From Caldilineales bacterium (lineage in GTDB: Bacteria > Chloroflexota > Anaerolineae > J102), in assembly GCA_013360575.1 (NCBI GenBank), contig JABWBG010000012.1:1-56336 (forward strand): a stretch of DNA of 56,336 bases. Direction: 5' to 3'. Positions 4,316 to 54,679 of this stretch are shown here, piece by piece. Positions within the stretch are counted from its first letter, which is position 1; each line of letters begins with the position of its first letter. The notes beneath the pieces are model-generated. The model was not told where the DNA came from. It did no database searches and worked only from the letters and a program-made list of their open reading frames with translations. The position numbers and the translations under genes were made by a program.

Positions 4316-5665
4316 ATGCAGGTCTACGAATCCCTTTCCAGCGCCTCTCTGACCGGGCCGACCGCGCTCACCATCGGGAATTTCGATGGCGTCCATCGCG
4401 GGCACGGCGCGCTCATCCGAGCCATGGCAGAGGCCGCGGCGGCAGAGGGCGCGGCCTCTGGTTTGCTGACCTTTCACCCCCACCCCCGGGCAGTGTTGCA
4501 GCCTACAGCTACGGTTTCCTCCCTCACTTCGCTACACGAAAGACTCGATCTGCTCTCGCGCACCGGCCTCGATTTCACCGTCGTCCACCCCTTCACCCGT
4601 GACACCGCACAGACAGAAGCCGCAGCCTTCCTGCACGCCCTGCGCGGGCACCTGGGCCTGACAAGCCTGTGGGTAGGGCCAGATTTTGCCCTGGGCAAAG
4701 GGCGGCAGGGGGATGTGCCCTTTCTGCGCCAGCTGGGTGCAGAGATGGGGATCAGGATCGAGGTCGTCCCCGAATTTCAATGGGAGGGGCAACCGGTGCG
4801 CTCCAGCCACATCCGCCAATGGATCGAATTGGGCAACGTGGCCGCGGCCAATGTGGCCCTGGGCCGGCGGTACGCCATCCCGGGCGTGGTGGTGCACGGC
4901 GCGGAGCGAGGCCGCACCATCGGCTTCCCCACCGCCAACCTCTCTCTGGCCGGCGAACAGGTGATCCCGGCCCATGGCGTCTACGCCACCTGGGCGCACG
5001 TGGGCGGGGAGCGGCTGCCCGCAGTCACCAATATCGGCGTGCGGCCCACGGTCAACGGCTCCCACCGCACGGTCGAGGCGCACATCATCGACTTCGATCA
5101 GGACATTTACGGGCGCTGCCTGCGGTTGGAGTTCGTCGACCGGCTGCGCGATGAGATGAAATTCCCCTCGCTGGCCGCGCTCACCGCTCAGATCGCGCGC
5201 GATCGTGATCAGGCCGCACACCTGCTGGCGGCGGAGCCGGCCCTGCCCACCGCTCCCCGCTTCCAGGAATTGGCCTACACCGCGGACTGGGGCGTGGCGG
5301 TCTATGGCGATAGCCAGGCGGCGTTGTACGCCCACGCCGCCCTGGCCATGTTCACCCTGCAAGGCGCGGCTGACGTGGACGGCCCCACCGTGCGCCAGCA
5401 GTTTGCCATCGCAGCCGAGGATCGCGAATCCTTGTTGGTGTGCTGGTTGAATGAGTTGCTGTGGCAGGCGGAAACGCAGGGCGTGTTCTTCCAACAGTTT
5501 TGGGTGGAGGCGATCGACGACGTCAGCCTGCGGGCGCAGGCAGTGGGACGCCGCGGCCGCAGCGAACAGGCGCACATCAAGGCCGTCACCTATCACGATC
5601 TGGAAGTCCTCGCCCCCACCCAGCCGGGAGAAAGCTGGAAAGCGCGGGTGCTTTTCGATACGTGA
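4316..5665 (+). CDS. ribF: Bifunctional riboflavin kinase/FAD synthetase fused to a C-terminal archease-like domain
   Basis: FAD synthetase N-terminus: TIGNFDGVHRGHGALI. Riboflavin kinase part: GRTIGFPTANL and VEAHIIDFDQDIYG. From about nt 5261 the sequence is archease-like: FQELAYTADWGVAVYGDSQAALYAHAALAMFTL .. LLVCWLNELL .. IKAVTYHDLEV .. ARVLFDT. Confidence 0.85.
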   Translation: MQVYESLSSASLTGPTALTIGNFDGVHRGHGALIRAMAEAAAAEGAASGLLTFHPHPRAVLQPTATVSSLTSLHERLDLLSRTGLDFTVVHPFTRDTAQTEAAAFLHALRGHLGLTSLWVGPDFALGKGRQGDVPFLRQLGAEMGIRIEVVPEFQWEGQPVRSSHIRQWIELGNVAAANVALGRRYAIPGVVVHGAERGRTIGFPTANLSLAGEQVIPAHGVYATWAHVGGERLPAVTNIGVRPTVNGSHRTVEAHIIDFDQDIYGRCLRLEFVDRLRDEMKFPSLAALTAQIARDRDQAAHLLAAEPALPTAPRFQELAYTADWGVAVYGDSQAALYAHAALAMFTLQGAADVDGPTVRQQFAIAAEDRESLLVCWLNELLWQAETQGVFFQQFWVEAIDDVSLRAQAVGRRGRSEQAHIKAVTYHDLEVLAPTQPGESWKARVLFDT

Positions 5666-18856: not shown

Positions 18857-18876
18857 TTGAGCACACGTGTGCTCAA
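18857..18876. promoter_or_regulatory. Perfect 20-bp palindrome, candidate LacI-family operator
   Basis: TTGAGCACACGTGTGCTCAA begins about 5 nt downstream of the predicted TSS and about 20 nt upstream of the regulator ATG. Confidence 0.6.
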
Positions 18877-18898
18877 GCATGATCAAACCGTCCCCTCC

Positions 18899-19912
18899 AT
18901 GTCCACAGGCAAAGAGATCTCCATCCGCGATATTGCCGAGGCCGCCGGCGTCAGCCACACCACGGTGAGCCGGGCGCTGCATGGCCGCGGGCGCATGCGC
19001 GCCGATACCCGCGCCCACATCCAGGCCCTGGCCGAGCAGATGGGCTACACACCCGACGTCAGGGCGCGCAGCTTGGTCAGCGGCGAGACCCGCACCATTG
19101 GCGTCGTGGTCACCACCATCGCCGATCCCTTCGTGGTGCAGATCGTGGATGGCATCGAGGCGGTGGCGCAGGCCGCGGGCTACAGCCTCTTTCTCAGCGC
19201 CTCGCACTCCGACCCGGAGCGGGAGCTGGCGGTGGTGGAAACCTTTCACCAGCGCCGTGTGGATGCGGTCATCGTCACCGCTTCACGCGTGGGCAACCTG
19301 TACGCCGCCCGTTTGAAACAGTTCGGCGCCCCGATCGTGCTGATCAACAACCTGCAGGAGGGGCCTTATCTCTATTCCGTCTCTGCCGACGATGTGGCCG
19401 GCGCGCAGTTGGCGGTGGCGCATCTGCTGGAGTTGGGGCACCGCCGCATCGCCTATCTTGGCTCCACTTCCCGGCCTATATCTTCGCTACGCCGCCAACA
19501 GGGCTACGCCGCGGCGTTGCAAGAGGCCGGCATCTCCTTCGACCCTGCTCTGGTGGCGGCCCCGGAGGCCGAGAGCGACCTGGCCGCGGGGCAGGAGGGG
19601 CTGTGGATGCTGCTGGCCGCCGCGCCCACCGCCCTTTTTGCCTACAACGACATGACCGCCATCGGCGTATTGCAGGGGGCCGCCCGCATGGGAATCGACA
19701 TTCCGGGCAAACTCAGCGTCATCGGCTTCGACGACAACGAAATCGCCCGGCTGGTGACGCCGCCGCTGAGCACCATCCACCAGCCGCAGCAGGAATTGGG
19801 GCGTCGAGCCATGCACATGGCGCTCGACTTACTGGCCAAACGCCAGATCAACGACGTCATCCTGCCTTGCACCCTTGTCCTCCGCGCCACCACCGCCTCA
19901 CCCACCCACTAA
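18899..19912 (+). CDS. LacI-family transcriptional regulator
   Basis: HTH ISIRDIAEAAGVSHTTVSRALHG, followed by a periplasmic-binding-protein-like sugar-binding domain. The ORF-track start at 18857 is a TTG inside the operator; the ATG at 18899 is preferred. Confidence 0.85.
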   Translation: MSTGKEISIRDIAEAAGVSHTTVSRALHGRGRMRADTRAHIQALAEQMGYTPDVRARSLVSGETRTIGVVVTTIADPFVVQIVDGIEAVAQAAGYSLFLSASHSDPERELAVVETFHQRRVDAVIVTASRVGNLYAARLKQFGAPIVLINNLQEGPYLYSVSADDVAGAQLAVAHLLELGHRRIAYLGSTSRPISSLRRQQGYAAALQEAGISFDPALVAAPEAESDLAAGQEGLWMLLAAAPTALFAYNDMTAIGVLQGAARMGIDIPGKLSVIGFDDNEIARLVTPPLSTIHQPQQELGRRAMHMALDLLAKRQINDVILPCTLVLRATTASPTH

Positions 19913-19959: not shown

Positions 19960-21117
19960 ATGAAAGGCTTAGTTTTGGATGCCGCCTGGCATCCCAAATC
20001 ACATTACAAAGTCAGCGACTGGGAAAAACAAACCGGCAAGGCCATCACCGGCAACAGCATCTGGCACAATCCCACTCTCGAAGTGCGCGAATGGCCCGAT
20101 CCCAAAGTCGGCCCGCAGGATGTGCTGCTGGAAATCCAGGCCTGCGGCGTCTGCGGCTCGGACATGCACTTCTACGAGACCGACGCCGACAACTACATCC
20201 TCTATCCCGGCCTCACCAAATTTCCTACCATCCTTGGCCATGAATTCTCCGGCAAGGTGGTGGAGATCGGCAAGGATGTGAAAATGCTGCAGGTCGGGGA
20301 TTACGTCACCGTCGAGGAGATGATCTGGTGCGGGCGCTGCACACCCTGCCGCAACGGCTATCCCAACCATTGCACCAATCTCGAAGAGATCGGCTTCACC
20401 ATCCCCGGCGCGTTCGCCCGATATCTGGCCGTGGATGAGAAATTCTGCTGGAAAGTGGACGGGATTCTCGACCGTTTCGGCCTGGAAAAGGGGCTGGAAG
20501 TGGCGGCCTTGAGCGAGCCGACCAGCGTCTCGTACAATGCCATGTTCACCCGCGGGGGCGGCTTCAAACCGGGCCATTTCGTCAGCGTGTTCGGGCTGGG
20601 GCCTATCGGCCTGGCCGCGGTGGGGCTGGCCGAGGCTGCCGGCGCCGGCATGATCGTCGGGTTCGAGGTCTCGGCGCAGCGCCGCCAGATCGCCAAGCAA
20701 CTGGGCGCGGACGCTCTCTTTGACCCGCGCGAAGTCAGCCCGCACGAGGTGATGAACGAGTTGAGCAAAGGCGTGGGCTTCGATTTCCATGTCGAGGCCG
20801 CGGGCGCGCCCCATCTCACCGTGCCGGAGATGGAGAAAGCGCTGGCGATCAACGGCAAGGTTATCCAGATCGGCCGCGCTGCCCAGAGGGTGCCGATGTA
20901 TTTGGAGACTTTCCAGGTGCGTCGCGGCCAGTTCTTCGGCGCGCAGGGGCATTCCGGCCACGAAAACTTCCCGAATGTGGTGCGCATGGTCGCATCCGGC
21001 CGCCTCGACCTCAGCCCCATCATCACCGCCCGTTACGGCCTCGATGACGCCGTCGCCGCCATCGCTCAATCCACCGAGCGCCGCGACGGCAAGATCATGG
21101 TCAAACCGGGGCAGTAA
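19960..21117 (+). CDS. Zn-dependent medium-chain dehydrogenase (scyllo-inosose 3-dehydrogenase IolM-like / sorbitol dehydrogenase family)
   Basis: ATG at 19960. Zn-ADH motifs ACGVCGSDMHFYE and GHEFSGKVVEIG. GLGPIGLAAVGLA Rossmann segment. Confidence 0.85.
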   Translation: MKGLVLDAAWHPKSHYKVSDWEKQTGKAITGNSIWHNPTLEVREWPDPKVGPQDVLLEIQACGVCGSDMHFYETDADNYILYPGLTKFPTILGHEFSGKVVEIGKDVKMLQVGDYVTVEEMIWCGRCTPCRNGYPNHCTNLEEIGFTIPGAFARYLAVDEKFCWKVDGILDRFGLEKGLEVAALSEPTSVSYNAMFTRGGGFKPGHFVSVFGLGPIGLAAVGLAEAAGAGMIVGFEVSAQRRQIAKQLGADALFDPREVSPHEVMNELSKGVGFDFHVEAAGAPHLTVPEMEKALAINGKVIQIGRAAQRVPMYLETFQVRRGQFFGAQGHSGHENFPNVVRMVASGRLDLSPIITARYGLDDAVAAIAQSTERRDGKIMVKPGQ

Positions 21118-21294: not shown

Positions 21295-22311
21295 ATGCCC
21301 GAAAAACTCACTCTCGGCCTGATCGGGGCCGGGCGGATCGGACGGCTGCACGGCGAGCACCTGGCCCGGCGCCTGCCTGCAGCGGACCTGCTGGCGGTCT
21401 CCGACATCTTCGTGGACGCGGCGCAGCGTCTGGCCGCGGACTTCGGTCTGCCGCACGCCTACGCCGACCACCGCCGCATCCTCGACGACCCCGCCATCGC
21501 CGCGGTCGTGATCTGCTCCAGCACCGACACGCACGCGCAGATGATCATCGACGCCGCCGAAGCGGGCAAGCATATCTTCTGCGAAAAGCCGATCCACCTG
21601 GATCTGGCCGAGATCGACCGGGCGCTGGCCGCGGTGGAGAAGGCCGGGGTCAAGCTCCAGGTCGGGTTCAACCGCCGTTTTGACCCAAATTTCCGGCAGG
21701 CGCGGGAGATCGTGGCCTCTGGCGGCATCGGCGAGCCGCAGATCGTGCGCATCACCAGCCGCGACCCGGCGCCGCCGCCGATCGGCTACATCCAGGTCTC
21801 CGGCGGCATCTTCCTCGATCAGACCATCCACGATTTCGACATGGCCCGCTTCCTGCTGGCCGATGAGGTGGAGGAAATCTTCGCCGTCGGCGGGGTCATG
21901 GTCGATCCGGCTATCGGCGAGGCCGGGGACATCGACACCGCCCTGATCACGCTGCGCTACCGCGGCGGGGCGCTGGGCAGCATCGACAACAGCCGCCGGG
22001 CCGTGTACGGTTACGACCAGCGCGTGGAGGTCTTCGGCTCCGAGGGCGTGGTCACGGTCGCAAACGCCAAACCGGACACCGCCGTCCATCTCAACTCGAC
22101 CGGAGAACACGCCGCCCTGCCCCTCTTCTTCTTCGTCGAGCGCTACACCGAGTCCTATCTGGCCGAAATGCGCGAGTTCATCACCTGTGTGCGCGAAGAC
22201 CGCACCCCGCCCGTCACCGGCCACGATGGCCGCATCCCCGTGGTGATGGGCTACGCGGCGAAGCGCTCATATGATGAGAACAGGCCTGTGAAACTGAGTG
22301 ATATCGAGTAA
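21295..22311 (+). CDS. Gfo/Idh/MocA oxidoreductase (inositol 2-dehydrogenase-like)
   Basis: AAGGAG at 21282-21287. LGLIGAGRIGRLHGEHL, HIFCEKPI and FNRRFDPNF are typical of IolG-type dehydrogenases. Confidence 0.8.
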   Translation: MPEKLTLGLIGAGRIGRLHGEHLARRLPAADLLAVSDIFVDAAQRLAADFGLPHAYADHRRILDDPAIAAVVICSSTDTHAQMIIDAAEAGKHIFCEKPIHLDLAEIDRALAAVEKAGVKLQVGFNRRFDPNFRQAREIVASGGIGEPQIVRITSRDPAPPPIGYIQVSGGIFLDQTIHDFDMARFLLADEVEEIFAVGGVMVDPAIGEAGDIDTALITLRYRGGALGSIDNSRRAVYGYDQRVEVFGSEGVVTVANAKPDTAVHLNSTGEHAALPLFFFVERYTESYLAEMREFITCVREDRTPPVTGHDGRIPVVMGYAAKRSYDENRPVKLSDIE

Positions 22312-22409: not shown

Positions 22410-23555
22410 ATGGAGAAATCCCTCATGACAACTATGCCCAAAGGCTGGCTTGCATCCAGCAATCCCACCGTTATCTTCGAAGACAACCACATCGGCCACA
22501 TGAAAAAGGCGCTGTTCGAGGCCGACGAGGCCACGCTCGACGCGGTGCTGGCCGAGTACGGCATGGCGCCGGGGGCTGTGCCGCCGGTGGAGTGGAGCAA
22601 ACCGGGCACCTACATCCAGATGATGACGCGGCGGCAGCTGATCGAAGAGCGTCGCAAAAACGACATCATCCTCGTGCCCATCGGTTGCACCGAGAACCAT
22701 GGCTTGCACCTGCCCAGCGCCACCGACACCCTCTTCGTCAGCCAGATCATCGAGGGCGTGCGCCGCTATTTCCGCAAGCAGGACATCCCCATCGCCCTGT
22801 CGCTGCCCCCGCTGAATTTCGGCGCGCATCCCTACCATCACTACGGCATGCCCGGCACCGTGCCCGTGCGCGAAGACATCGCCCGCGAGATGCTGATTGA
22901 CATGATGCTGGGATTGTGGAACGATGGCTTCCGCAAGATCATCATGCTCAATAACCACGGCCATCTGTGGATGCTGGAGGCGGCGGTGCAGCAGTTCCAG
23001 AAGCGCTACCACCTCCCCGGCATCTTCCGGGCCATGGACTGGCACCGGGCCGTGCGCGAGAGCTTCTACACCCACGACCGCGGGGGCGATTACGGCAGCA
23101 ACTTCGTCCACGCCGAAGAAGCGGAGACCTCGTTGGCCCTCTATCTCTTCCCCGACATGGTGGAGATGGCACTGGCCGTGAACACCAAAGGCAAGTCTTA
23201 TCTCAAGGAGGGCCACTTCGACACCTCGGTCGATCCCTATCACCGGCCCGGTCGCTGGTCGGAAGGCGAGGGCCACTTTGCTATCGAACTATCGGCCACC
23301 CCCGAAGGCGTGGTGGGCAACGCCGCCGACGCTGACGCCGCCAAGGCCAAGCGGCCCCTGGCCATGATCCTGCGCTATCTCACCCTGCTGATCGAAGACA
23401 TCCGCGCCGCGTTCCCGCCCGGCGTGCTGCCTCCGGTCGAGGAAGTGACCCTACGCACTGCCGCCGAGATGGAACCCTACCTGCGCGAGCCGCAGAGCGA
23501 AGGCTGGAAACCGGTCTACGCCCTGCCCCGCATCGGCCAGAGCAATATTTTTTAA
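22410..23555 (+). CDS. Creatininase-fold amidohydrolase family protein (IolN-like candidate)
   Basis: ILVPIGCTENHGLHLPSATDTLF and NNHGHLWM motifs. The second ATG at 22425 has the better GGAG spacing, so the true start may be 22425. Confidence 0.75.
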   Translation: MEKSLMTTMPKGWLASSNPTVIFEDNHIGHMKKALFEADEATLDAVLAEYGMAPGAVPPVEWSKPGTYIQMMTRRQLIEERRKNDIILVPIGCTENHGLHLPSATDTLFVSQIIEGVRRYFRKQDIPIALSLPPLNFGAHPYHHYGMPGTVPVREDIAREMLIDMMLGLWNDGFRKIIMLNNHGHLWMLEAAVQQFQKRYHLPGIFRAMDWHRAVRESFYTHDRGGDYGSNFVHAEEAETSLALYLFPDMVEMALAVNTKGKSYLKEGHFDTSVDPYHRPGRWSEGEGHFAIELSATPEGVVGNAADADAAKAKRPLAMILRYLTLLIEDIRAAFPPGVLPPVEEVTLRTAAEMEPYLREPQSEGWKPVYALPRIGQSNIF

Positions 23556-23718: not shown

Positions 23719-24732
23719 ATGCCTGATCTTCGCATCGCCGTGATCGGCGCCGGCCGCATCGGCCTCGTCCACGCCGCCAACATCGCCCACCGGGTGCGCG
23801 GGGCCGCGCTCGTGGCCGTGACCACAGCAAATCCCGACCGGGCAGCCGCGGTTCGCCAGATTTTCGGGCCGGAGCTGGCCATCTATCCCAACCTGGCCGG
23901 CTTGCTCGCGCAGGAAACCCTCGACGCCGTGGTCATCGCCAGCAGCACTGCCGCGCACCGCGCCAATATCGAGGCCTGCGCCGCCGCCGGTCTGCACATC
24001 TTCTGCGAGAAACCGCTGGCCCTGAGCCTGCCCGATTGCGACGCCGCCATCCTCGCCAGCGAACAGGCCGGGATCAAGCTGATGGTCGGGCATGTGCGCC
24101 GATTCGATCCCGCGGCCATCGCGGCCAAACAGCGTATCGCTGCCGGCGACATTGGCCGGCCCATCGTCTACCGCGCCATCGCCGGCGACCAGGATCCGCC
24201 CCCACCCAGCTTCGCCGATCCCACCGTCAGCGGCGGCCTGATTACCGATGCCGGCTACCACGACTTGTACCTGGCCCGCTGGCTGATGGAGGATGAGATC
24301 GTGCGGGTCTACGCCGAGGGTGGGGCGCTGGTAGCCCCGGAGATCGGCGCGGTGGGCGACGTGGACAACGCCATCGTCGATTTTCGCTTTGCCCGCGGCG
24401 GGCTGGGCACGCTGTACGTCAGCCGCACCACGCGCTACGGCCATGATGTGCGCGTGGAAGTGATCGGCAGCGAGGGGGCCATGCACATCGGCCAGTTGCG
24501 CCGCACCCCGGTCAATCTGCTCACCCGCGGCGGCGTCAGCCACGATGTCATCCCCGACACCGCCGCCCGTTACGCCGAGGCCTTTGTCGCCGAGCTGCAA
24601 GCCTTTGTCGATTGCGTACGCCACGACACGCCGCCGCCGGTCAGCGGCCAGGACAGCCGCACGGTCGTCGCCATCGGCCTCGCCGCCCGCAAATCCCATC
24701 AACAAGGCGAAATCGTGTATGTGCTTCAATAA
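23719..24732 (+). CDS. Gfo/Idh/MocA oxidoreductase, second inositol dehydrogenase-like paralog
   Basis: IAVIGAGRIGLVHAANI, HIFCEKPL and HVRRFDP. Paralogous to 21295-22311. Confidence 0.8.
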   Translation: MPDLRIAVIGAGRIGLVHAANIAHRVRGAALVAVTTANPDRAAAVRQIFGPELAIYPNLAGLLAQETLDAVVIASSTAAHRANIEACAAAGLHIFCEKPLALSLPDCDAAILASEQAGIKLMVGHVRRFDPAAIAAKQRIAAGDIGRPIVYRAIAGDQDPPPPSFADPTVSGGLITDAGYHDLYLARWLMEDEIVRVYAEGGALVAPEIGAVGDVDNAIVDFRFARGGLGTLYVSRTTRYGHDVRVEVIGSEGAMHIGQLRRTPVNLLTRGGVSHDVIPDTAARYAEAFVAELQAFVDCVRHDTPPPVSGQDSRTVVAIGLAARKSHQQGEIVYVLQ

Positions 24733-24765: not shown

Positions 24766-25608
24766 ATGAACCTAGCGCAAATCAGCCAAAACTACGATTT
24801 CAGTGGCCGTACGATTGTAATCACCGGCGGGGGCGGGGTGCTGGGCGGCGAGATCGCCGCGACCCTGGCCGGCTGTCATGCCAACATCGCCATTCTCGAC
24901 CGGGACATGCGCTTAGCCGAGCGGGCGGCGCAGCGCATCGCCGAATTGCCGGGCATGCAGGCGCGGGCCGTGGCGATCGATGCCGATGTGCTCGACAAAG
25001 CCTCGTTGGCCAAGGCCGAAGCCCGCGTACACAGCGAATTTGGCCGCGTCGACGGCCTGATCAACGCCGCCGGCGGCAACAAACCGCAGGCCACCACCTC
25101 GCCCGACCTCGCTTTCTTCGACCTGCCCGCGGAGGCGCTGCGCTTTGTCTTCGACCTGAACATCCTGGGCACGATCCTGCCCAGCCAGGTGTTTGGGCGG
25201 GGCATGGCCGCGCAGCAGGAGGGCGTGATCCTGAATATCTCTTCGATGAACGCGTTTCGTCCGCTCACCCGCATCCCCGCCTACTCCGCGGCCAAGGCCG
25301 GCGTCAGCAATTTTACGCAGTGGCTGGCGGTGCACATGGCCCAGGAATACTCCCCGCGCATCCGTGTCAACGCCATCGCGCCCGGCTTCTTCCTCACCGA
25401 GCAGAACCGCTTCCTGCTCACCGACACTGCCACCGGCGAGCTGACCCCGCGCGGCCAGACGATCCTGGCGCACACGCCCATGGCCCGCTTCGGCGACCCC
25501 GCCGACCTGCTGGGCGCGGTGCTGTGGCTGCTCTCCCCCCTCTCCCAATTCGTCACCGGCATCGTCCTCCCCATCGACGGCGGCTTCTCGGCCTTTAGTG
25601 GGGTTTAG
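24766..25608 (+). CDS. SDR-family oxidoreductase (D-mannonate / gluconate 5-dehydrogenase-like)
   Basis: VITGGGGVLGGEIA (TGxxxGxG), NAAG, and the YSAAKAGVSNFTQWLA catalytic YxxxK. Confidence 0.8.
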   Translation: MNLAQISQNYDFSGRTIVITGGGGVLGGEIAATLAGCHANIAILDRDMRLAERAAQRIAELPGMQARAVAIDADVLDKASLAKAEARVHSEFGRVDGLINAAGGNKPQATTSPDLAFFDLPAEALRFVFDLNILGTILPSQVFGRGMAAQQEGVILNISSMNAFRPLTRIPAYSAAKAGVSNFTQWLAVHMAQEYSPRIRVNAIAPGFFLTEQNRFLLTDTATGELTPRGQTILAHTPMARFGDPADLLGAVLWLLSPLSQFVTGIVLPIDGGFSAFSGV

Positions 25609-25764
25609 GTTGGTTGGTTAGTTGGTTAGTTGGTTGGTTAGTTGGTTGGTGGGGATTGCCGATAAACACGCAAACCTACCAATTTACCAATCTACCAATT
25701 TACCAATCTACCAATTTACCTACCAACCAACAAACAAACCAACCAACTAACAAACTCCCCCCCC
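25609..25764. repeat. TTGG / CTACCAAT / CCAA composite hairpin element with conserved core
   Basis: The (TTGGTTAG)n arm (25609-25653) is followed by the core ggtggggattgccgataaacacgcaaac, then 3 x ctaccaatttaccaat, then a (CCAA)n arm that runs up to the ATG at 25765. Confidence 0.9.
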
Positions 25765-27027
25765 ATGCTCACCTCCCACGCCCATCCCACCCAAACCTTG
25801 ACCGAACCCGACGTGCGGGGGCTGTTGCAGCGCGGGTTGGGGCAGATCGACGTGAGCGGCAAACGCCTGCTCGTGCTCATCCCCGATGGCACACGCAGCG
25901 GCCCCATCCCCCTGTTTTTCCGGCTGATCCACGAAATTCTCGGCGGCGAAGTGGCCGCGCTCGATTACCTGATCGCCCTGGGCACACACCAGCCCATGCC
26001 CTCCGCAGCCATCGCGCGGTTGACCGGGGCCTCCGCGGCGGACATGGCCGGGCGCTACCGGAATGTGCGGGTGCTGAACCACGCCTGGCAACACCCCGAC
26101 ACCTTCGTCACCCTGGGCGTCATCCCCGCCGCCGAGATCGAAGGACTGAGCAACGGCCTGTTCGCCATGCCCGTGCCGGTGGCGCTGAACCGCCTGGTGC
26201 TCGATTACGACCACATCCTGATCTGCGGGCCGGTCTTCCCACACGAGGTGGCGGGGTTCTCCGGGGGCAACAAATACTTCTTCCCCGGCATCGCCGGCCA
26301 GGAGATCATCGACTTCACCCACTGGCTGGGCGCGCTGATCACCAATTACGAGATCATCGGCGTCAAACACACCCCCGTGCGCGCCGTGATCGAGCGCGCC
26401 GCCGCCATGATCCCCACGCCCACCTCCGCCATCTGCTTCGTGGTCACAGAGAACGACCTGCACGGCGTCTTCACCGGCCCGGTCGTCGAAGCCTGGGCCG
26501 CGGCCGCAGACCTCGCCGCCCAAACTCACATCCTCTGGGTCGATCGCGCCTACGATCAAGTGCTCTCGGTCATGCCCCGGCTGTACGACGACATCTGGAC
26601 CGCGGCCAAAGGCATGTACAAGCTGGAGCCGGTGATCGCGGATGGCGGTCGGGTGACGATCTACGCCCCGCACATCGACGAGATCTCCTACACCCACGGC
26701 CGCATCCTCGATGAGATCGGCTACCACGTGCGCGATTACTTCGTCAAACAGTGGGATCGCTTCAAACACTACCCCTGGGGCGTGCTGGCGCATTCCACGC
26801 ACTTGCGCGGCATGGGCGCCTACGAAAACGGCGTCGAAACCCCACGCGTCGATGTCAGCCTGGCCACCGCCATCCCCCCCGAACGGGTGCGCCGGGTCAA
26901 TCTCGACTACACGAATCCCGCCGCCATCCGCCCTGAAGCGTGGGCCGGACAAGAGGATGCCGGCATTCTGCTCGTCCCCCATGCCGGCGAGATGCTCTAC
27001 CGGCTGAAACCGGAGGCGGCGCGATGA
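25765..27027 (+). CDS. LarA-family (nickel-pincer nucleotide-dependent) 2-hydroxyacid racemase/epimerase homolog
   Basis: LLVLIPDGTRSGP (LarA: DHTRPVP), ALGTHQPM (LarA: ATGFHRP), and VAGFSGGNKYFFPGIAG (LarA: FAGFSGGRKSVLPGIAS), which includes the Lys that tethers the cofactor. Confidence 0.75.
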   Translation: MLTSHAHPTQTLTEPDVRGLLQRGLGQIDVSGKRLLVLIPDGTRSGPIPLFFRLIHEILGGEVAALDYLIALGTHQPMPSAAIARLTGASAADMAGRYRNVRVLNHAWQHPDTFVTLGVIPAAEIEGLSNGLFAMPVPVALNRLVLDYDHILICGPVFPHEVAGFSGGNKYFFPGIAGQEIIDFTHWLGALITNYEIIGVKHTPVRAVIERAAAMIPTPTSAICFVVTENDLHGVFTGPVVEAWAAAADLAAQTHILWVDRAYDQVLSVMPRLYDDIWTAAKGMYKLEPVIADGGRVTIYAPHIDEISYTHGRILDEIGYHVRDYFVKQWDRFKHYPWGVLAHSTHLRGMGAYENGVETPRVDVSLATAIPPERVRRVNLDYTNPAAIRPEAWAGQEDAGILLVPHAGEMLYRLKPEAAR

Positions 27028-28544
27028 ACAGCGGCGCGGGCGTGATCCCGGCTCATCAGGCCGAGCCGCCGCTGGTGCTGGCGCTGGATGTGGGCAGCTC
27101 ATCCATCCGGGCGTTGGTTTTCGACCGGTTGGGCCGGGCGATCGCTGGGCTTGAGGCGAAGGAGCCGCATGCGTTCCGCACCGACGCGGCCGGCGCATCT
27201 GAGGCCGACCCCGACGCGCTGCTGCAATTGATCTTCGCCTGCATCGACCGCGCGTTGCAGGCGGCAGGCCCGCTGGCAAATGCCATCGCCGCGGTGGCCG
27301 CCGATACTTTTGTCAACAACATCCTCGGCATCGACGCGCATGGGCGGGCCATCACCCCACTGACCACCTATGCCGACACCCGCGCCGCCGGCGAGGTGGC
27401 GGGCCTGCAAGCCGATTTCGCCGAAGCCGAGACGCACAACCGCACCGGCTGCCGCTTCCATCCCAGCTATCTGCCCGCCCGCCTGCGCTGGCTGCACCGG
27501 GCCGATCCCGACCTTTTTCGCGCGGTCGCCCGCTGGGTCTCGCTGGACGAATACCTCAAGCTGGCCCTGTTCGGCGAGGCCGCGGTCAGCACCTCGGTGG
27601 CAGCCTGGACCGGCCTGCTCGATCGGCGGCGGCTGATCTGGGATGAGCCATTGCTGGCGGGGCTGCCGATTACAGCCGGACAACTGTCGCCCCTGGTCGA
27701 TGCCGATGCCGGCCAGCAGGGAGTGCGCCCAGTTTTTGCCCGGCGCTGGCCCTCGCTGGCGCAGATCCCCTGGTTCCCGGCCATCGGCGATGGCGCCGCG
27801 GCCAACCTGGGCTGCGGCTGCGTCGGCCCGGAGCGCGTGGCCCTGACCGTGGGCACCTCCAGCGCTCTGCGCGCGGTGGCCGTCGCCGATGCCCCGCAAC
27901 TGCCCTCCGGTTTGTGGTGCTATCGCGTCGATGCCCGGCGTTCGTTGCCCGGCGGGGCTTTGACCGAGGGCGGGTCGGTCTACGCCTGGATGCGCCAGAC
28001 CCTGCAATTGGACGATCCCGCGGCGGTGGAGCAGGCATTGGCGGCAATGCGCCCGGATGGGCATGGGCTGACCCTGCTGCCCCTGTTCGCTGGCGAGCGC
28101 AGCCCCGGCTGGGTCGGACACGCCCGCGCCACATTTCATGGCCTGACGTTGGCGACCACGCCCCTGCACCTGCTGCGGGCCGGGCTGGAAGCCGTGGCCT
28201 ATCGCATTGCCCTGGTCTACGCCCAGTTGCGGCCGCTGTTGCCCGCCGAGCCGGAGATCATCGCCGGGGGTGGGGCGCTGCTGGCCTCGCCGGCCTGGTT
28301 GCAAATCATGGCCGATGTGCTGGGCCGGCCCGTCATCGCCTCGGCTGCGCCCGAAGCGACGGCCCGCGGCGCCGCGCTGCTGGCGCTCGAGGCCATCGCC
28401 GCGCTGCCCGACCTATCACAGGCCCCGGTTTTCACCGGCGATGCCTATCTGCCCAACCCCGACCATCACGCCATCTACACCGCCGCCATTGCCCGCCAAC
28501 AGCACCTGTACCAGCGGGTGACCATCCTGACACTTGACACTTGA
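27024..28544 (+). CDS. FGGY-family carbohydrate kinase (gluconokinase-like)
   Basis: ATG at 27024 overlaps the LarA-homolog stop (ATGA). LALDVGSSSIRALVFD, AIGDGAAANLGCG and IIAGGGALLASPAWLQIMADVLGRPV. Confidence 0.8.
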   Translation: MNSGAGVIPAHQAEPPLVLALDVGSSSIRALVFDRLGRAIAGLEAKEPHAFRTDAAGASEADPDALLQLIFACIDRALQAAGPLANAIAAVAADTFVNNILGIDAHGRAITPLTTYADTRAAGEVAGLQADFAEAETHNRTGCRFHPSYLPARLRWLHRADPDLFRAVARWVSLDEYLKLALFGEAAVSTSVAAWTGLLDRRRLIWDEPLLAGLPITAGQLSPLVDADAGQQGVRPVFARRWPSLAQIPWFPAIGDGAAANLGCGCVGPERVALTVGTSSALRAVAVADAPQLPSGLWCYRVDARRSLPGGALTEGGSVYAWMRQTLQLDDPAAVEQALAAMRPDGHGLTLLPLFAGERSPGWVGHARATFHGLTLATTPLHLLRAGLEAVAYRIALVYAQLRPLLPAEPEIIAGGGALLASPAWLQIMADVLGRPVIASAAPEATARGAALLALEAIAALPDLSQAPVFTGDAYLPNPDHHAIYTAAIARQQHLYQRVTILTLDT

Positions 28545-28568: not shown

Positions 28569-29216
28569 CTACCCCTCCGCCGCGGCAAACACCTCCGCCA
28601 CATCCACGGCAAAGCCCTGCAGCAGCACCGACGTGGCCTGCTGGCCCGGCGTGAAGCGGCCATGTTCAGCGTAGCGATCCCCTGCCAGCGTCAGCACCAG
28701 GATCTCCGCCCGCTCTTGATCGACAATCCAATACTCGGGGATGCCTGCCTGCGCATACTCCCGCCGCTTCGTTTCCGTGTCGTGCCGCCGATCCTTTGGG
28801 CTGACCACCTCCATCACCAAATCCGCGCCGATCCAGAAACTTTCGGTGCGCCGTGAGGCATTTTTCCGGGCCATAAACACCAAATCTGGCTCGCGGAACT
28901 TACCCGGCCATAGCCGCACTCGTAAAGGAGCAAACAAAACCAGTCCTAATCTCTGCGCCAAAACAAACTGCTCCAATAGCTTGAACAGCAGTCTTGTGAT
29001 CAGTTGGTGTGATTGAGTCGGCATCGGAACCACCTCCAAATGGCCGTGCGAGAATTCGATCAGGTGATTGGTATCCAACGCCAGATATTCTTCCTCGTCC
29101 CAATGCCCCTGCGCCCGATGTTCCAGGTCGGTTCTGCCTCCTCTGGTCGCAGATATTCGAGTGTTTGCATACATGCCTCCGTGAGCGAAACGGCTATCAG
29201 GCCCCGATCCTATCAT
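28569..29216 (-). CDS. Uma2-family (DUF820, PD-(D/E)xK-like) putative endonuclease, copy A
   Basis: EEYLALDTNHLIEFSHGHLEVVPMP, FREPDLVF, ADLVMEVVSPKD and IPEYWIVD. ATG at 29216 after GAGGAA. Confidence 0.75.
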   Translation of the reverse strand: MIGSGPDSRFAHGGMYANTRISATRGGRTDLEHRAQGHWDEEEYLALDTNHLIEFSHGHLEVVPMPTQSHQLITRLLFKLLEQFVLAQRLGLVLFAPLRVRLWPGKFREPDLVFMARKNASRRTESFWIGADLVMEVVSPKDRRHDTETKRREYAQAGIPEYWIVDQERAEILVLTLAGDRYAEHGRFTPGQQATSVLLQGFAVDVAEVFAAAEG

Positions 29217-29292
29217 AATTTCCTCACCCTGTCGAACCCCCTCTGCCCCATACCATCCTGACACTTGACACCTGGCACCTGACACCTCCCCC

Positions 29293-29949
29293 CTACCCCT
29301 CCGCCGCGGCAAACACCTCTGCCACATCCACGGCAAAGCCCTGCAGCAGCACCGACGTGGCCTGCTGGCCCGGCGTGAAGCGGCCATGTTCAGCGTAGCG
29401 ATCCCCTGCCAGCATCAGCACCAGGATCTCCGCCCGCTCTTGATCGACAATCCAATACTCGGGGATGCCCGCCTGCGCGTACTCCCGCCGTTTCGTTTCC
29501 GTGTCGTGCCGCCGATCCTTTGGGCTGACCACCTCCATCACCAAATCCGCGCCGATGAAATACTGTTCGGTCTTGCGATCTCGATGCGATGCGAGCATGA
29601 ACACAACATCTGGTTCCCGAAATTTTCCCGACCACAATTGCACGCGCAGCGGCGAAGTCAAAGCCTCGCCCAGCCTCCGGCTTTTCACAAATCGAGACAG
29701 AACTTGTACCAGAAAAAGGACAATGCGTTGATGCGATAAGGTCGGCATCGGAACCACCTCCAAATGGCCGTGCGAGAATTCGATCAGGTGATTGGTATCC
29801 AACGCCAGATATTCTTCCTCGTCCCAATGCCCCTGCGCCAGAGTTGCGCGATGTTCCAGGTCGGTTCTGCCTCCTCCGGTCGCAGATATTCGAGTGTTTG
29901 CATACATGCCTCCGTGAGCGAAACGGCTATCAGGCCCCGATCCTACCAT
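29293..29949 (-). CDS. Uma2-family putative endonuclease, copy B
   Basis: Same N- and C-terminal sequence as copy A with a divergent middle (..SHQRIVLFLVQVLSRFVKSRRLGEALTSPLRVQLW..). ATG at 29949. Confidence 0.75.
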   Translation of the reverse strand: MVGSGPDSRFAHGGMYANTRISATGGGRTDLEHRATLAQGHWDEEEYLALDTNHLIEFSHGHLEVVPMPTLSHQRIVLFLVQVLSRFVKSRRLGEALTSPLRVQLWSGKFREPDVVFMLASHRDRKTEQYFIGADLVMEVVSPKDRRHDTETKRREYAQAGIPEYWIVDQERAEILVLMLAGDRYAEHGRFTPGQQATSVLLQGFAVDVAEVFAAAEG

Positions 29950-29981: not shown

Positions 29982-30800
29982 ATGAAACTCTCACTCGTCC
30001 TCTCCACCCAACCAGCGCGGTTCGACGCCGTGGCCTTCAAAGGCGACCTGGCCGCCAATTTTGCCAAGATCGCCGGCTGGGGCTATGACGGCGTCGAACT
30101 CGCTATCCGCGATCCCCGGCTGGTCGACGCCGAAGCCATCGCCGATCTCGCTCGCGGGCACGGCCTAGCCATCCCCGCCATCGGCACCGGCCAGGCCTGG
30201 GGCGAAGAGGGCCTCTCCTTCACCGATCCCGATCCGGCCATCCGTGACGCCGCTATCGCTCGCGTGCACAGCCACATCCCCCTGGCCGCTCGTTTCGAGG
30301 CCGTGATCATCATCGGCCTGCTGCGCGGGATCGTGCGGCCGGGGCTGGCGCCGGGCCAGGCCATGGCCCTGCTGGTCGATGCATTGCGACAAAACTGCGC
30401 CGCCGCCGCCGAACAGGGCGTGCGCATCGCCCTGGAGCCGATCAATCGCTACGAGACCACCCTGATCAACACCGTGGCCGAGGGTTTGGAACTGATCGAA
30501 AAGGTCGGAGCGCAAAATTTGGGCTTGCTGCTCGACACCTTCCACATGAACATCGAGGAGCCTGCGATCGAGGCCAGCATCGCCGCGGCGGGAGACCGTA
30601 TCTTCCACTTCCACGTAGCCGATTCCAATCGCTGGCCGCCCGGCGGCGGGCACATCGACTTCCGCTCCGTACTCGACGCCCTGTTTGCCGCCGGCTACGA
30701 CGGCTTTGTCTCCGGCGAGTTCCTGCCCCGGCCCGACGCGGACAGCGCCGCGGGCCAGGCCATCACTTTTCTTCGCTCACTTTCTCCTTTCCATGATTAG
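29982..30800 (+). CDS. Xylose-isomerase-like TIM-barrel sugar isomerase/epimerase (IolO-like 5-keto-L-gluconate epimerase candidate)
   Basis: YDGVELAI, RIALEPINRYET, LLDTFHMNIEE and FHFHVADSNR (metal-binding E/D/H/E pattern of the AP-endonuclease-2/TIM family). Confidence 0.75.
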   Translation: MKLSLVLSTQPARFDAVAFKGDLAANFAKIAGWGYDGVELAIRDPRLVDAEAIADLARGHGLAIPAIGTGQAWGEEGLSFTDPDPAIRDAAIARVHSHIPLAARFEAVIIIGLLRGIVRPGLAPGQAMALLVDALRQNCAAAAEQGVRIALEPINRYETTLINTVAEGLELIEKVGAQNLGLLLDTFHMNIEEPAIEASIAAAGDRIFHFHVADSNRWPPGGGHIDFRSVLDALFAAGYDGFVSGEFLPRPDADSAAGQAITFLRSLSPFHD

Positions 30801-32298
30801 CGAATTGTTTTTTTCTCTTGATTTAGAGGTTACTGAACAGATAGCCTTATGGCTACACGAAATCAGCGATCTGGCAATCTATCCACGCTCATTGGCCACG
30901 GCCAACCAGGCCTTGTTTGCCCTGGGCCGGGCTGGTGCTGCCAAGAAACTGATCATCGTCAGCCGCGGCGACCAGCCGCCGCCGCCCGGATTCAGTGGCG
31001 AGACGCGCGCCGTCGGCGAGTTGCGCCTGACCCTCTGCCCCACCAGCGCGGCCCATGCCGCCGCGCTCCGCGTAGCCCTTGACTACACGAAGCCATCCTG
31101 TCTGGGGCTGGCAACCTCGGTTGGCTGCGGCGATCGGTTGGGTCTGGCCACGCCGGGGCACATCCAGGCCGTGGCCGGAACCGGTGTGCGGCCCATCCTG
31201 GCCCAGCAATCGATGCGCGAGAACGCCCGCACCGGCCGCACGCCGCAGCAAGTGATCGACGACGCCACCTGGGGCGTGTTCGAGGCGGGCTGGCGGCAGG
31301 GCTACGGCGCCGACGCCGATCATCTCAAAACCACGGCGCATATCGATGCCTGCGTGGCCGCCGGCTACACCTTTTTCACCATCGATCCCGGCGACCATGT
31401 GCAGGATGAGGCCCACACCGCCCCGCCCGCCCATCTTGCAGACATCGTGGCGGCCCTGCCCTGGGCCAGTCTGGAGAGCAACCTTGCGGACTTGCGCGCC
31501 CGCTATCTGGGCCCGGTTTTCGATCTGGACGAAGGGACGCGCATCGCCTTCGACGAAGAGACGCTGTTGCGGGCCGCGGGCAAATATGGCCGGGCCATCG
31601 CCCACACCGCCCGCATGGCCCGCCATCTGGCCGGGCTGACCCCGGATTTCGATCTGGAGATGTCGGTGGACGAGACCGAAACGGTGACATCGGCGGCAGA
31701 GCATTTCTTCATTGCCAACGAGTTGCGGCGGCTGGGCGTGCGCTGGGTCAGTCTGGCGCCCCGCTATGTGGGCCGGTTCGAAAAAGGCGTGGATTACATC
31801 GGCGATCTGGCCGCGTTCGAGGCCAGTTTGGCCCAGCACGCTGCCATCGCCCGCAGCCTTGGCCCCTACAAACTCAGCATCCATTCTGGCTCCGACAAAT
31901 TCAGCATCTACCCGGCCTTTGCCCGGCAGACCGGCGGCCTGGTGCACCTGAAAACCGCGGGAACCAGCTATCTGGAGGCGCTGCGCGTGGCGGCGCAGGC
32001 CGAGCCGGATCTTTTCCGCCGCATCCTCGCTCTGGGCATCGAACGGTATCCCGCCGAACGGGCGACCTACCACGTCTCCGCCGATCTGGCCCGTGTGCCC
32101 GATCCCGCCGCGGTCGCCGACTCCGATCTGCCCCGCTATCTGGATCAGTCCGACGCCCGGCAGGTTCTGCACGTCACCTATGGGGCGGCGCTGGCCGCGT
32201 TTGGCGACGACCTGATCGCCGTGCTACGCTGGCATGAAGAGGCGCATTACGCTGCCCTCGCCGGCCATTTTCGCCGGCATCTACAGTCATTTTTTTGA
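30793..32298 (+). CDS. uxaE: Tagaturonate/fructuronate epimerase (UxaE-like)
   Basis: ATG at 30793 overlaps the upstream gene by 8 nt. GYGADADHLKT, KLSIHSGSDKFSIYP and HLKTAGTSYLEAL resemble the UxaE family as I remember it. Confidence 0.6.
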   Translation: MISELFFSLDLEVTEQIALWLHEISDLAIYPRSLATANQALFALGRAGAAKKLIIVSRGDQPPPPGFSGETRAVGELRLTLCPTSAAHAAALRVALDYTKPSCLGLATSVGCGDRLGLATPGHIQAVAGTGVRPILAQQSMRENARTGRTPQQVIDDATWGVFEAGWRQGYGADADHLKTTAHIDACVAAGYTFFTIDPGDHVQDEAHTAPPAHLADIVAALPWASLESNLADLRARYLGPVFDLDEGTRIAFDEETLLRAAGKYGRAIAHTARMARHLAGLTPDFDLEMSVDETETVTSAAEHFFIANELRRLGVRWVSLAPRYVGRFEKGVDYIGDLAAFEASLAQHAAIARSLGPYKLSIHSGSDKFSIYPAFARQTGGLVHLKTAGTSYLEALRVAAQAEPDLFRRILALGIERYPAERATYHVSADLARVPDPAAVADSDLPRYLDQSDARQVLHVTYGAALAAFGDDLIAVLRWHEEAHYAALAGHFRRHLQSFF

Positions 32299-32345
32299 CG
32301 AAGGACGAAAGATCGCATCATTGCCTCATCGTAAGGAGCCTACGC

Positions 32346-33731
32346 ATGAACGACTATCGCATCGAAAAAGATTCTCTGGGCGAGGTGCGGGTGCCCGCGG
32401 GCGCGCTCTACGGCGCCCAAACCCAACGCGCAGTGGATAATTTCCAGATCAGCGGCCTCCTCTTCCCCCGCAGTTTCATCCGGGCGCTGGGCCTGGTCAA
32501 GGCTGCCTGCGCCCAGGCGAACCAGGATCTGGGCCTGATGGAGGAGGCGATGGCCGCGGCGATTCAGCAGGCCGCGCAGGAGGTGGCCGCGGGCCAGCAC
32601 GATGCCCACTTCCCTCTCGACATCTTCCAGACCGGCTCCGGCACCAGCACGAACATGAACGCCAACGAGGTGATCGCGGCCCTGGCCAGTCGCGCCCTGG
32701 CCGCGGGCGTGCACCCGAACGATCATGTGAATATGAGCCAGTCTTCCAACGATGTCATCCCCACAGCCATGCACGTGGCCGCGTATCTGGAAGCGCAGGA
32801 GGCGCTGCTGCCCGGCCTACAACAGCTCTATGATGCTCTGATCGAAAAGGCGGCGGCGGTGGATGACGTGGTCAAGACCGGGCGCACCCATCTGATGGAC
32901 GCCATGCCGCTGCGGCTGAGCCAGGAGCTGGGGGGCTGGGCCACGCAGATCGGTAAAGGCATGGTGCGGGTGGAGGGGGCGCTGGCCAGCGTGGCCGGAT
33001 TGGCGCTGGGCGGCACCGCGGTGGGCACCGGCATCAATGCTCATCCTGCGTTCGGGGCCCGCGTCGCCGCGGTGCTGGCCGAGCGCACCGGCTACCCCTT
33101 CGCGGCCAACGATAACTTCTTCGAAGCTCTCTCCTCCGCCGATGCCATGGTGGAGCTGAGCGGCCAGATCAAAACGGTCGCGGCCAGCCTGATGAAGATC
33201 GCCAACGACCTGCGCTGGATGAACTCTGGCCCCCTTGCCGGCCTGGCCGAGATCAGCCTGCCGGCGTTGCAGCCCGGATCCAGCATCATGCCCGGCAAGA
33301 TCAATCCGGTGATCCCGGAGGCGGTGATGATGGTCTGCGCGCAGGTGATCGGCAACGATGTGACGGTGACGATCGGCGGCATGTCGGGCAATTTCCAGTT
33401 GAATGTGATGCTGCCGGTGATCGCGTACAACGTGCTGCAAGCAGAGAGGCTGCTGGGCCGGGCCGCGGCGGCGCTGGCTGATAAAGCTATCGCCGGCTTC
33501 AGCGTCAACCGCGAGCGCGTGGCCGCGCTGGTGGACAAAAATCCCATTCTGGTCACCGCGCTCAACCCGGTGATCGGCTATGAAATGGGCGCGCAGGTGG
33601 CCAAAACCGCGTACGCGCAGGGCCGCAGTCTGAAGGAAGTGGCGGCGGAGCTGACCGACCTGACGCCGGCAGAATTGGATGCCCTGCTCGACCCGGCCAA
33701 GCTAACGCGCGGGGGCATCCAATCGGCCTGA
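32346..33731 (+). CDS. Class II fumarase/aspartase superfamily lyase (aspartate ammonia-lyase-like signature)
   Basis: AAGGAG before the ATG at 32346. RIEKDSLGEVRVPAGALYGAQTQRA and the signature GSSIMPGKINPVIPE (NPV.PE resembles aspartase; fumarase has NPTQCE). Confidence 0.85.
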   Translation: MNDYRIEKDSLGEVRVPAGALYGAQTQRAVDNFQISGLLFPRSFIRALGLVKAACAQANQDLGLMEEAMAAAIQQAAQEVAAGQHDAHFPLDIFQTGSGTSTNMNANEVIAALASRALAAGVHPNDHVNMSQSSNDVIPTAMHVAAYLEAQEALLPGLQQLYDALIEKAAAVDDVVKTGRTHLMDAMPLRLSQELGGWATQIGKGMVRVEGALASVAGLALGGTAVGTGINAHPAFGARVAAVLAERTGYPFAANDNFFEALSSADAMVELSGQIKTVAASLMKIANDLRWMNSGPLAGLAEISLPALQPGSSIMPGKINPVIPEAVMMVCAQVIGNDVTVTIGGMSGNFQLNVMLPVIAYNVLQAERLLGRAAAALADKAIAGFSVNRERVAALVDKNPILVTALNPVIGYEMGAQVAKTAYAQGRSLKEVAAELTDLTPAELDALLDPAKLTRGGIQSA

Positions 33732-34700: not shown

Positions 34701-34905
34701 GTTGTAGTTGGTTGGTTGGTTGGTTGGTTGGTTGGTTGGTTGGTTGGTTTGTTGGTTGGTTGGTTGGTTGGTAGATTGGTAGATTGGTAGATTGGTAAAT
34801 TGGTGGAGATCGCCAAAAAAAAACGAGAACTCACCAACCAACCAACAAACAAACCAACAAACCAACCAACCAACAAACAAACAAACAAACCAACCAACCA
34901 ACCAT
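34701..34905. repeat. Largest TTGG/TAGATTGG/CCAA hairpin element (arms about 65-100 bp) with conserved core
   Basis: A (TTGG)n + (TAGATTGG)3 arm (34706-34806) is followed by the core ggtggagatcgccaaaaaaaaacgagaac, then a (CCAA/CAAA)n arm (34831-34905). It fills the whole gap between two minus-strand genes. Confidence 0.92.
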
Positions 34906-54565: not shown

Positions 54566-54679
54566 GGTAGGTTGGTAGATTGGTAGATTGGTGGGTTTTC
54601 GTGTTTTTTGGCGATCCCCACCAATCTACCAATCTACCAATTTACCAATTTACCAATCTACCAATTTACCAACCTACCA
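54566..54679. repeat. TAGATTGG/CTACCAAT hairpin element with conserved core, right arm overlapping the ruvX 3' end
   Basis: ggtaggttggtagattggtagattggtggg - ttttcgtgttttttggcgatcc - ccaccaatctaccaatctaccaatttaccaat... The reverse complement of the core (ggggatcgccaaaaaacacgaaaac) matches the cores at 25650-25677 and 34803-34830. Confidence 0.9.

Follow-up and report, generated by a model that had tools for sequence, protein, structure and literature searches.

We analysed a 56,336-nucleotide stretch of DNA from a Caldilineales bacterium of the phylum Chloroflexota (class Anaerolineae; assembly GCA_013360575.1, contig JABWBG010000012.1, positions 1 to 56,336; this whole stretch is hereafter called the window). 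At 25765-27027 on its forward strand lies an open reading frame (ORF) for a 420-aa protein of the LarA superfamily. With a probability of roughly 0.75, we consider this protein to be a Group-19, GntE-type epimerase that converts D-mannonate to D-gluconate and so closes an inositol route of the Thermotoga type. Every LarA homologue assayed so far, GntE1 and GntE2 included, has needed the nickel-pincer nucleotide (NPN) (PMC7583248). We found none of the cofactor genes larB, larC and larE in the assembly that carries the gene, and LarA homologues without larBCE proved to be frequent in the class (neither LarB nor LarC was found in 44 of the 137 genomes that carry an ortholog). They are scattered over its phylogeny, and one of the genomes concerned is closed. 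Judged from sequence conservation, selection on every cofactor-binding residue appears undiminished in the genomes that lack larBCE.

Family membership and catalytic residues

The protein matches the Pfam family Lar_N (PF09861) with 65 bits against a cut-off of 23. Its residues were mapped by HMMER alignment to the LarA proteins of Lactobacillus plantarum (8ezf_B) and T. thermosaccharolyticum (2yjg), and the three motif pairings with L. plantarum LarA that an initial annotation had proposed by eye were all recovered: DGTR (residues 41-44) pairs with DHTR (72-75), D41 corresponding to D72 and R44 to R75; GTHQP (73-77) pairs with GFHRP, H75 corresponding to H108; and PHEVAGFSGGNKYFFPGI pairs with SHFFAGFSGGRKSVLPGI, H160 corresponding to H174 and K170 to K184. 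The same alignments equate H186 with H200 and K282 with K298. In LarA, K184 is the thioamide tether of the cofactor and H200 is a ligand of the nickel. Both catalytic histidines (H75 and H160), the tethering lysine (K170) and the nickel-ligand histidine (H186) are therefore present in the Caldilineales protein, and all four are invariant among 99 orthologs; with D41, R44, W278 and K282 they make up the key residues followed below. The first motif does carry glycine (Gly42) in place of His73 of LarA, as had been seen from the sequence. Because this position is G, S, A, T, H, N or L among the orthologs and is tyrosine in GntE2 of Thermotoga maritima, it is non-diagnostic. In an AlphaFold (AF2) model of the protein (pLDDT 88.9), the SGGNK loop bearing the tether lysine is the sole low-confidence segment.

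To which of the described LarA groups does the protein belong? Group assignments, with their sequences, were taken from Supplementary file 1 of PMC7583248. Within Group 19, the Caldilineales protein shares 61% identity with Rcas_3031 of Roseiflexus, 57% with Npun_F5335, 51% and 49% with two other members, and 46% with GntE1; outside it, identity falls to 33% with GntE2 (Group 20) and to 28-30% with Group 18 sequences. Groups 18 to 20 share a signature consisting of an H-E-V loop and a W-T-A-x-K motif (PMC7583248), and the Group-19 signature positions mapped in the protein (D41, R44, H75, H160, E161, V162, K170, H186, W278, T279, A280, K282 and G283) all match. By these sequence comparisons, the protein is a member of Desguin Group 19 ('G2E2', GntE1-type). 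The initial annotation had placed it in an uncharacterised LarA clade, which has to be corrected, Group 19 being the group of GntE1, an enzyme that has been assayed (PMC7583248).

The nearest solved structure by sequence is 4NAR (E = 4e-54, over residues 32-416), which is GntE2/LarAH20, an NPN-dependent D-gluconate 2-epimerase (PMC7583248). The same structure is the best structural match of the AF2 model (TM-score 0.83, against 0.67-0.74 for LarA structures). Membership of LarAH18 was considered and ruled out: on the NCBIfam model of that family (NPN_18_hexonate), the protein scores 155 bits against a cut-off of 500, comparable to the 180 bits that GntE2 obtains there. Nor does the protein cluster with the lactate racemases, the model for which (NF033504) gives 61.5 bits against a cut-off of 460.

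The protein resembles GntE1 (LarAH19) of C. glutamicum in being a LarA-type protein of about 420 aa in a single polypeptide with the shared signature residues D, R, H, H, E-V, K, H and W-T-A..K-G, and both genes lie in a sugar-acid context (PMC7583248). The context here is an operon for inositol (IolM, IolN and IolO) with UxaE, whereas the physiological substrate of GntE1 was left open by its authors. The T. maritima cluster uxaE-uxaD-gntE-gntK, which contains GntE2 (TM0442), follows the same logic of UxaE, fructuronate reductase, LarA-type epimerase and FGGY kinase (Rodionova 2012, as cited in PMC7583248), and D-mannonate 2-epimerase activity of GntE2 has been demonstrated with NPN (PMC7583248); GntE2 belongs, however, to another Desguin group, and the reductase here is a short-chain dehydrogenase/reductase (SDR). 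With LarA of L. plantarum (5HUQ), the protein shares the fold (TM-score about 0.7) and the aligned lysine tether, nickel-ligand histidine and two catalytic histidines, but sequence identity is about 18%, the pocket residues Y294/Q295 are replaced by W278/T279, and the gene does not adjoin larB, larC, larE or a nickel transporter. C. glutamicum, one of our control genomes, has larB, larC and larE, whereas the Caldilineales genome and many of its relatives do not; the T. maritima genome encodes LarB, LarC and LarE.

The operon and the predicted inositol route

The initial annotation had described the gene as lying inside a sugar-acid operon that would give a strong hint to the substrate. The operon is indeed there, and its content points to the conversion of D-mannonate to D-gluconate. 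The features of this region are as follows.

18857..19912, +: LacI-family regulator, operon head; Pfam LacI and Peripla_BP_3, best NCBIfam matches all below their cut-offs
19960..21117, +: IolM, scyllo-inosose 3-dehydrogenase; NCBIfam NF041097, 528 bits (cut-off 450)
21295..22311, +: IolG, myo-inositol 2-dehydrogenase; TIGR04380, 455 bits (cut-off 355)
22410..23555, +: IolN, 3-dehydro-scyllo-inosose hydrolase of the creatininase fold; NF041098, 302 bits (cut-off 245)
23719..24732, +: second Gfo/Idh/MocA dehydrogenase, a paralogue of IolG; TIGR04380, 307 bits (below the cut-off of 355)
24766..25608, +: SDR of the D-mannonate oxidoreductase / fructuronate reductase type; NF006132 (PRK08277), 362 bits (cut-off 281)
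25609..25764, +: intergenic (GGTT/AGTT)n - (CCAA)n hairpin, copy of a dispersed repeat; RNA minimum free energy -56.1 kcal/mol, z = -5.8
25765..27027, +: Group-19 GntE-type LarA homologue, predicted D-mannonate/D-gluconate 2-epimerase; Lar_N, 4NAR match, Group-19 identities
27024..28544, +: FGGY-family sugar-acid kinase, GntK-like; Pfam FGGY_N and FGGY_C, gntK_FGGY 211 bits (below the cut-off of 648)
28569..29387, -: Uma2-family endonuclease gene on the opposite strand; Pfam PF05685, 113 bits
29982..30800, +: IolO, 5-keto-L-gluconate epimerase; NF041099, 339 bits (cut-off 300), Pfam AP_endonuc_2
30793..32298, +: UxaE, tagaturonate/fructuronate epimerase; Pfam PF16257, 493 bits, start probably ATG 30793
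32295..33731, +: class II fumarase; Pfam Lyase_1 and FumaraseC_C, operon membership uncertain

IolG, IolM, IolN and IolO thus all score above their NCBIfam equivalog cut-offs, the start of iolM being taken as the ATG at 19960 because the profile alignment starts at residue 120 of the long ORF. The stop codon of the epimerase gene overlaps the start of the kinase gene (ATGA at 27024-27027, with GGAGG upstream), and the kinase is translationally coupled to the epimerase.

We propose that myo-inositol would be converted by IolG to scyllo-inosose, by IolM to 3-dehydro-scyllo-inosose and by IolN to 5-keto-L-gluconate, from which IolO would form D-tagaturonate and UxaE D-fructuronate. The SDR would then yield D-mannonate, which the epimerase would turn into D-gluconate in the last isomerisation of the route; the coupled FGGY kinase would deliver 6-phosphogluconate, the predicted end product, to 6-phosphogluconate dehydrogenase (6PGD). 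In the epimerase step, which would most likely invert C2 of D-mannonate, a hydride would pass from C2 of the substrate to an NPN held by Lys170 and His186, with His75 and His160 serving as the acid/base pair, and would go back onto the opposite face of the substrate. The pathway IolG-IolM-IolN-IolO was reportedly described for T. maritima by Rodionova in 2013. All four of its enzymes are shared, and D-tagaturonate enters the hexuronate branch; the host here, however, is a member of the Chloroflexota, the inositol genes are joined in one operon with those for UxaE, the SDR, GntE and the kinase, and no UxuA branch was detected. The role of IolO has been confirmed (PMC12632266), and a branch of UxaE, reductase, GntE and GntK has been proposed for Thermotoga (cited in PMC7583248).

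The Caldilineales genome encodes 6PGD, and a search that did not extend to enolase-type mannonate dehydratases found no UxuA in it, so that no way out of D-mannonate other than the epimerase is evident. Among the neighbours of the epimerase in 63 ortholog loci of 12 kb or more, the SDR is the best conserved (44/63), followed by UxaE (26/63), a GntK-like kinase (10/63) and iol genes (5-7/63). The core module is the SDR with the epimerase, often joined by UxaE, and serves the breakdown of either hexuronates or inositol. Such surroundings speak for the conversion of D-mannonate to D-gluconate as the physiological role of Group 19; we infer this activity from the operon and also infer, for the Caldilineales enzyme, the direction of flux and the use of NPN.

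In the closed genome of a relative (G209), the ortholog stands in a cluster for the same pathway, comprising an ABC transporter, a glycerophosphodiesterase, the series SDR-GntE-PfkB kinase-IolG, and IolO-IolM-IolN. The inositol cluster of this genome (locus L147, 390-4656) is preceded by the ABC transporter genes and the glycerophosphodiester phosphodiesterase gene, which suggests glycerophosphoinositol as the natural source of inositol in that organism.

Some further features of the region were noted. The SDR and epimerase genes are parted by the 156-nt repeat hairpin, which is long and imperfect, with one arm of (GGTTGGTTAGTT)n and the other of (CCAA/ACCAAT)n. The repeat is dispersed genome-wide (its 12-16-mers give 585-885 matches at no more than 1 mismatch, the 16-mer 585), and further copies occur in the window near 34770 and at 54574-54645. 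It looks like a family of REP-like elements and may have contributed to the fragmented assembly. The Uma2-family gene, of the PD-(D/E)XK type, splits the kinase from iolO-uxaE and looks like an insertion into the operon. Downstream, the listed start of the fumarase gene overlaps the stop of uxaE. The rest of the 56-kb window is of a housekeeping nature (IF-2, TruB, RibF, FolD, AspRS, ScpA, UvrA and histidine kinases). A gene at 4316-5665 (+) encodes a bifunctional riboflavin kinase/FAD synthetase with an archease domain fused to its C-terminus, and the ORF at the end of the window (55102-56325, -) has a weak Baseplate_J-like domain (31 bits) and may mark the edge of a prophage or contractile injection system.

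Cofactor genes and selection across the class

The initial annotation had reported that larB, larC, larE and a nickel transporter are absent from the window, and this stands: with all large ORFs annotated and the families searched genome-wide, no lar gene or nickel transporter was found in it. It had then supposed that the enzyme depends on cofactor genes elsewhere in the genome. The assembly (3.93 Mb in 403 contigs, 91% complete) yielded no LarC with two models and no LarB (zero matches for PF01969, TIGR00299 and NF033503), and the LarE model TIGR00268 gave only matches of 20-22 bits to other PP-loop enzymes. Searches of the genome by tblastn with the LarB, LarC and LarE of relatives returned nothing at E <= 0.01 and no remnants. 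A CbiM/NikM-type transporter component is encoded in the genome. The supposed distal genes were thus found nowhere in the assembly, nor in several high-quality and closed relatives. The initial annotation would have taken such a genome-wide absence as refuting an active enzyme; we do not, because the protein is equally conserved in genomes with and without a LarC match.

Two other observations concern the same genome. A second and canonical LarA homologue, of the malate-racemase family LarAH5 (524 bits, cut-off 462), lies on contig C340 (locus L128, 2209-3477, -) near genes for an aldehyde:ferredoxin oxidoreductase, a xylose-isomerase-like TIM barrel, two Gfo/Idh/MocA dehydrogenases, a transaldolase and an ABC transporter; here likewise, no cofactor genes are nearby. 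The near-universal PurE (PF00731) was not found in the genome. The LarB model detects PurE in 14/14 control genomes, but many genomes of the class, among them G285, G308, G227 and the closed G209, give no match or one of 21-27 bits; part of the lineage may have a divergent PurE or none.

Is the absence of larBCE peculiar to this assembly? Most of the genomes compared are metagenome-assembled genomes (MAGs), and related genomes are not independent of one another. In 40 relatives, LarB, LarC and LarE are co-present or co-absent, and six genomes of 96-100% completeness have an epimerase ortholog (E < 1e-150) and none of the three genes. We then considered 301 genomes drawn evenly from the class, each at least 90% complete. 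The ortholog is carried by 137 of them; LarB and LarC are both present in 85 of these, one of the two in 8 and neither in 44. LarB and LarC occur together in 143 genomes, with LarC alone in 12 and LarB alone in 8; single-gene false negatives amount to about 6%, and we estimate that double false negatives among the ortholog-bearing genomes number about 6 at most. The genomes with neither gene include the closed single-contig G209 (2.57 Mb, 99% complete) and the two-contig G285, and whole lineages are without the cofactor genes (0/5 in one genus, g8, and 0/10 in one family, f27). In targeted searches, LarB and LarE were absent from G209, G285, G308, G169 and G227. For LarC, the Pfam model gave no match in G209, G285, G308 or G227 even when E was relaxed to 1. 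A search with the LarC protein of a relative found LarC in 3/3 positive controls and in 0/12 of the genomes with neither gene. A divergent LarC in the closed genome was accordingly rejected, neither the Pfam model at E <= 1 nor the relative's protein giving a match. Among 35 further ortholog-bearing genomes, reached by way of named loci in several phyla, Chloroflexota included, LarC is present in 28; since those without it are mostly Chloroflexota, the phenomenon is concentrated in that phylum. The converse also occurs: in the family of the Caldilineales genome itself, G010, G017, G019, G036 and others have full sets of LarB, LarC and LarE and no detectable LarA homologue. In one genus (g5), LarC is encoded in two or three pieces, a division also seen in larC1/larC2 of L. 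plantarum.

We compared 49 orthologs from genomes without a LarC match (three of which, G108, G143 and G311, have LarB) with 50 from genomes with one. D41, R44, H75, H160, K170, H186, W278 and K282 are invariant in both sets. A signature of neofunctionalisation was sought by a Fisher test on each column and rejected, no column separating the sets (best p 6e-4, uncorrected, over about 2000 tests on related sequences). By parsimony, LarC status switches 26 times on the gene tree, and no fewer than 17 switches are seen when only well-supported branches are counted; the LarC-less state arose many times. Median pairwise dN/dS is 0.14 for sister species that both lack the genes and 0.11 for pairs that both have them; in the pair formed by the closed genome and G308, it is 0.058 at a dS of 0.35.

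Competing explanations and the source of the cofactor

Several points weigh against our reading of the protein as a D-mannonate to D-gluconate epimerase of an inositol route, or against the generality of the missing cofactor genes. The only Group-19 enzyme to have been assayed is GntE1, whose KM for D-mannonate is 120 mM; the authors of that study suspected that the native substrate is another compound, perhaps an isomer (PMC7583248). With 211 bits, the FGGY kinase falls well short of the 648 that the gluconokinase model requires. Enolase-type mannonate dehydratases lay outside our search, so that D-mannonate may have other exits besides the epimerase. The assembly, fragmented, incomplete and also without PurE, must be missing some genes; some LarC-negative relatives are false negatives, as the three with LarB indicate; and some pairs on the gene tree with opposite LarC status are nearly identical and are probably MAG false negatives.

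The first two of these points would favour another hexonate or uronate as substrate, such as D-altronate, L-gluconate/D-idonate or an aldarate, and a direct reduction of 5-keto-L-gluconate to L-gluconate or D-idonate is possible in principle, as in the Paracoccus route (PMC12632266). We regard such a substrate as unlikely. Direct reduction of 5-keto-L-gluconate would leave IolO and UxaE without a role, the conserved partners of the epimerase (UxaE and an SDR of the mannonate-oxidoreductase type) make D-mannonate, and the coupled kinase, the presence of 6PGD and the failure to find UxuA fit an exit from gluconate to 6-phosphogluconate. Decay of the gene after loss of the cofactor pathway is scarcely credible. 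The missing larBCE would be in its favour. Against it, the frame is intact, all catalytic and cofactor residues are kept, the operon and its translational coupling are intact, and dN/dS is 0.06-0.2 (at a dS of 0.35-1.7) where neither of two sister species has LarB or LarC. In-frame stops flagged in G009, G012 and other genomes suggested pseudogenes; they proved to be terminal stop codons that the aligner had read through, none being internal, and the pseudogene idea was dropped. Because the residues are intact and dN/dS is low, we reject the relic hypothesis. The initial annotation had likewise held that the gene is no relic, a view that the invariance of the NPN-binding and catalytic residues in 99 orthologs and a dN/dS of about 0.1 appear to bear out.

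Two further explanations concern the cofactor. The protein might be an ordinary NPN enzyme whose larB, larC and larE sit in the approximately 9% of the genome that was not assembled or binned. The incompleteness of the assembly, the missing purE, the rate of single-gene false negatives in MAGs and the presence of LarC in 11/24 genomes of the same family speak for this, yet three genes would have to be missing simultaneously, tblastn detected no fragment of any of them, the genera of the closest orthologs in the gene tree have genomes of 96-100% completeness that are also without larBCE, and the same state is seen in a closed genome. We consider this explanation improbable. Alternatively, the enzyme might be active without NPN, the LarA scaffold holding another hydride acceptor or a simple metal on the same lysine and histidine. 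Purifying selection and intact operons in genomes without LarB, LarC and LarE, one of them closed, would be in keeping with this, as would the retention of the LarAH5 homologue in the same genome. Against it stand the lack of any residue that separates orthologs with and without a LarC match, which gives no sign of an altered cofactor site, the NPN requirement of all LarA homologues assayed (PMC7583248), and docking in which NAD(P)+ fits LarA poorly (PMC13524815); we think it rather unlikely.

How, then, might a GntE-type epimerase be supplied with its cofactor? If the absence of larBCE is real and the gene is functional, uptake of NPN or of a late precursor from neighbouring cells is the explanation that we would favour, at somewhat less than even odds. 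A different cofactor or metal would be a weaker candidate, an unrecognised route of synthesis is doubtful, and other explanations share what remains. More broadly, and tentatively, we suggest that many Chloroflexota of the class Anaerolineae may run NPN enzymes without making NPN, importing it or a late precursor, or may use a route independent of LarB, LarC and LarE. In the searchable papers, we found nothing on LarA homologues without larBCE or on NPN salvage, and the case discussed there is the opposite one, larBCE without LarA; genomes with larA alone may already have been tabulated.

The annotation of the enzyme is useful in itself but ordinary: a Group-19 GntE would connect inositol breakdown of the Thermotoga type with the pentose phosphate pathway, and the operon shows the enzyme in a physiological setting (fructuronate to mannonate to gluconate) that the authors of the GntE1 study did not have when they doubted its native substrate. 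More consequential is that a family in which all assayed members need NPN is kept under selection, in operons that depend on it, by many genomes without the only known route to NPN. Homologues of larA alone are accordingly a poor basis for predicting NPN enzymology, and the acquisition of NPN from outside, or its alternative synthesis, becomes a directly testable question. If uptake is confirmed, NPN would be a shared, 'vitamin-like' public good, and these bacteria would be the first recognised NPN auxotrophs.

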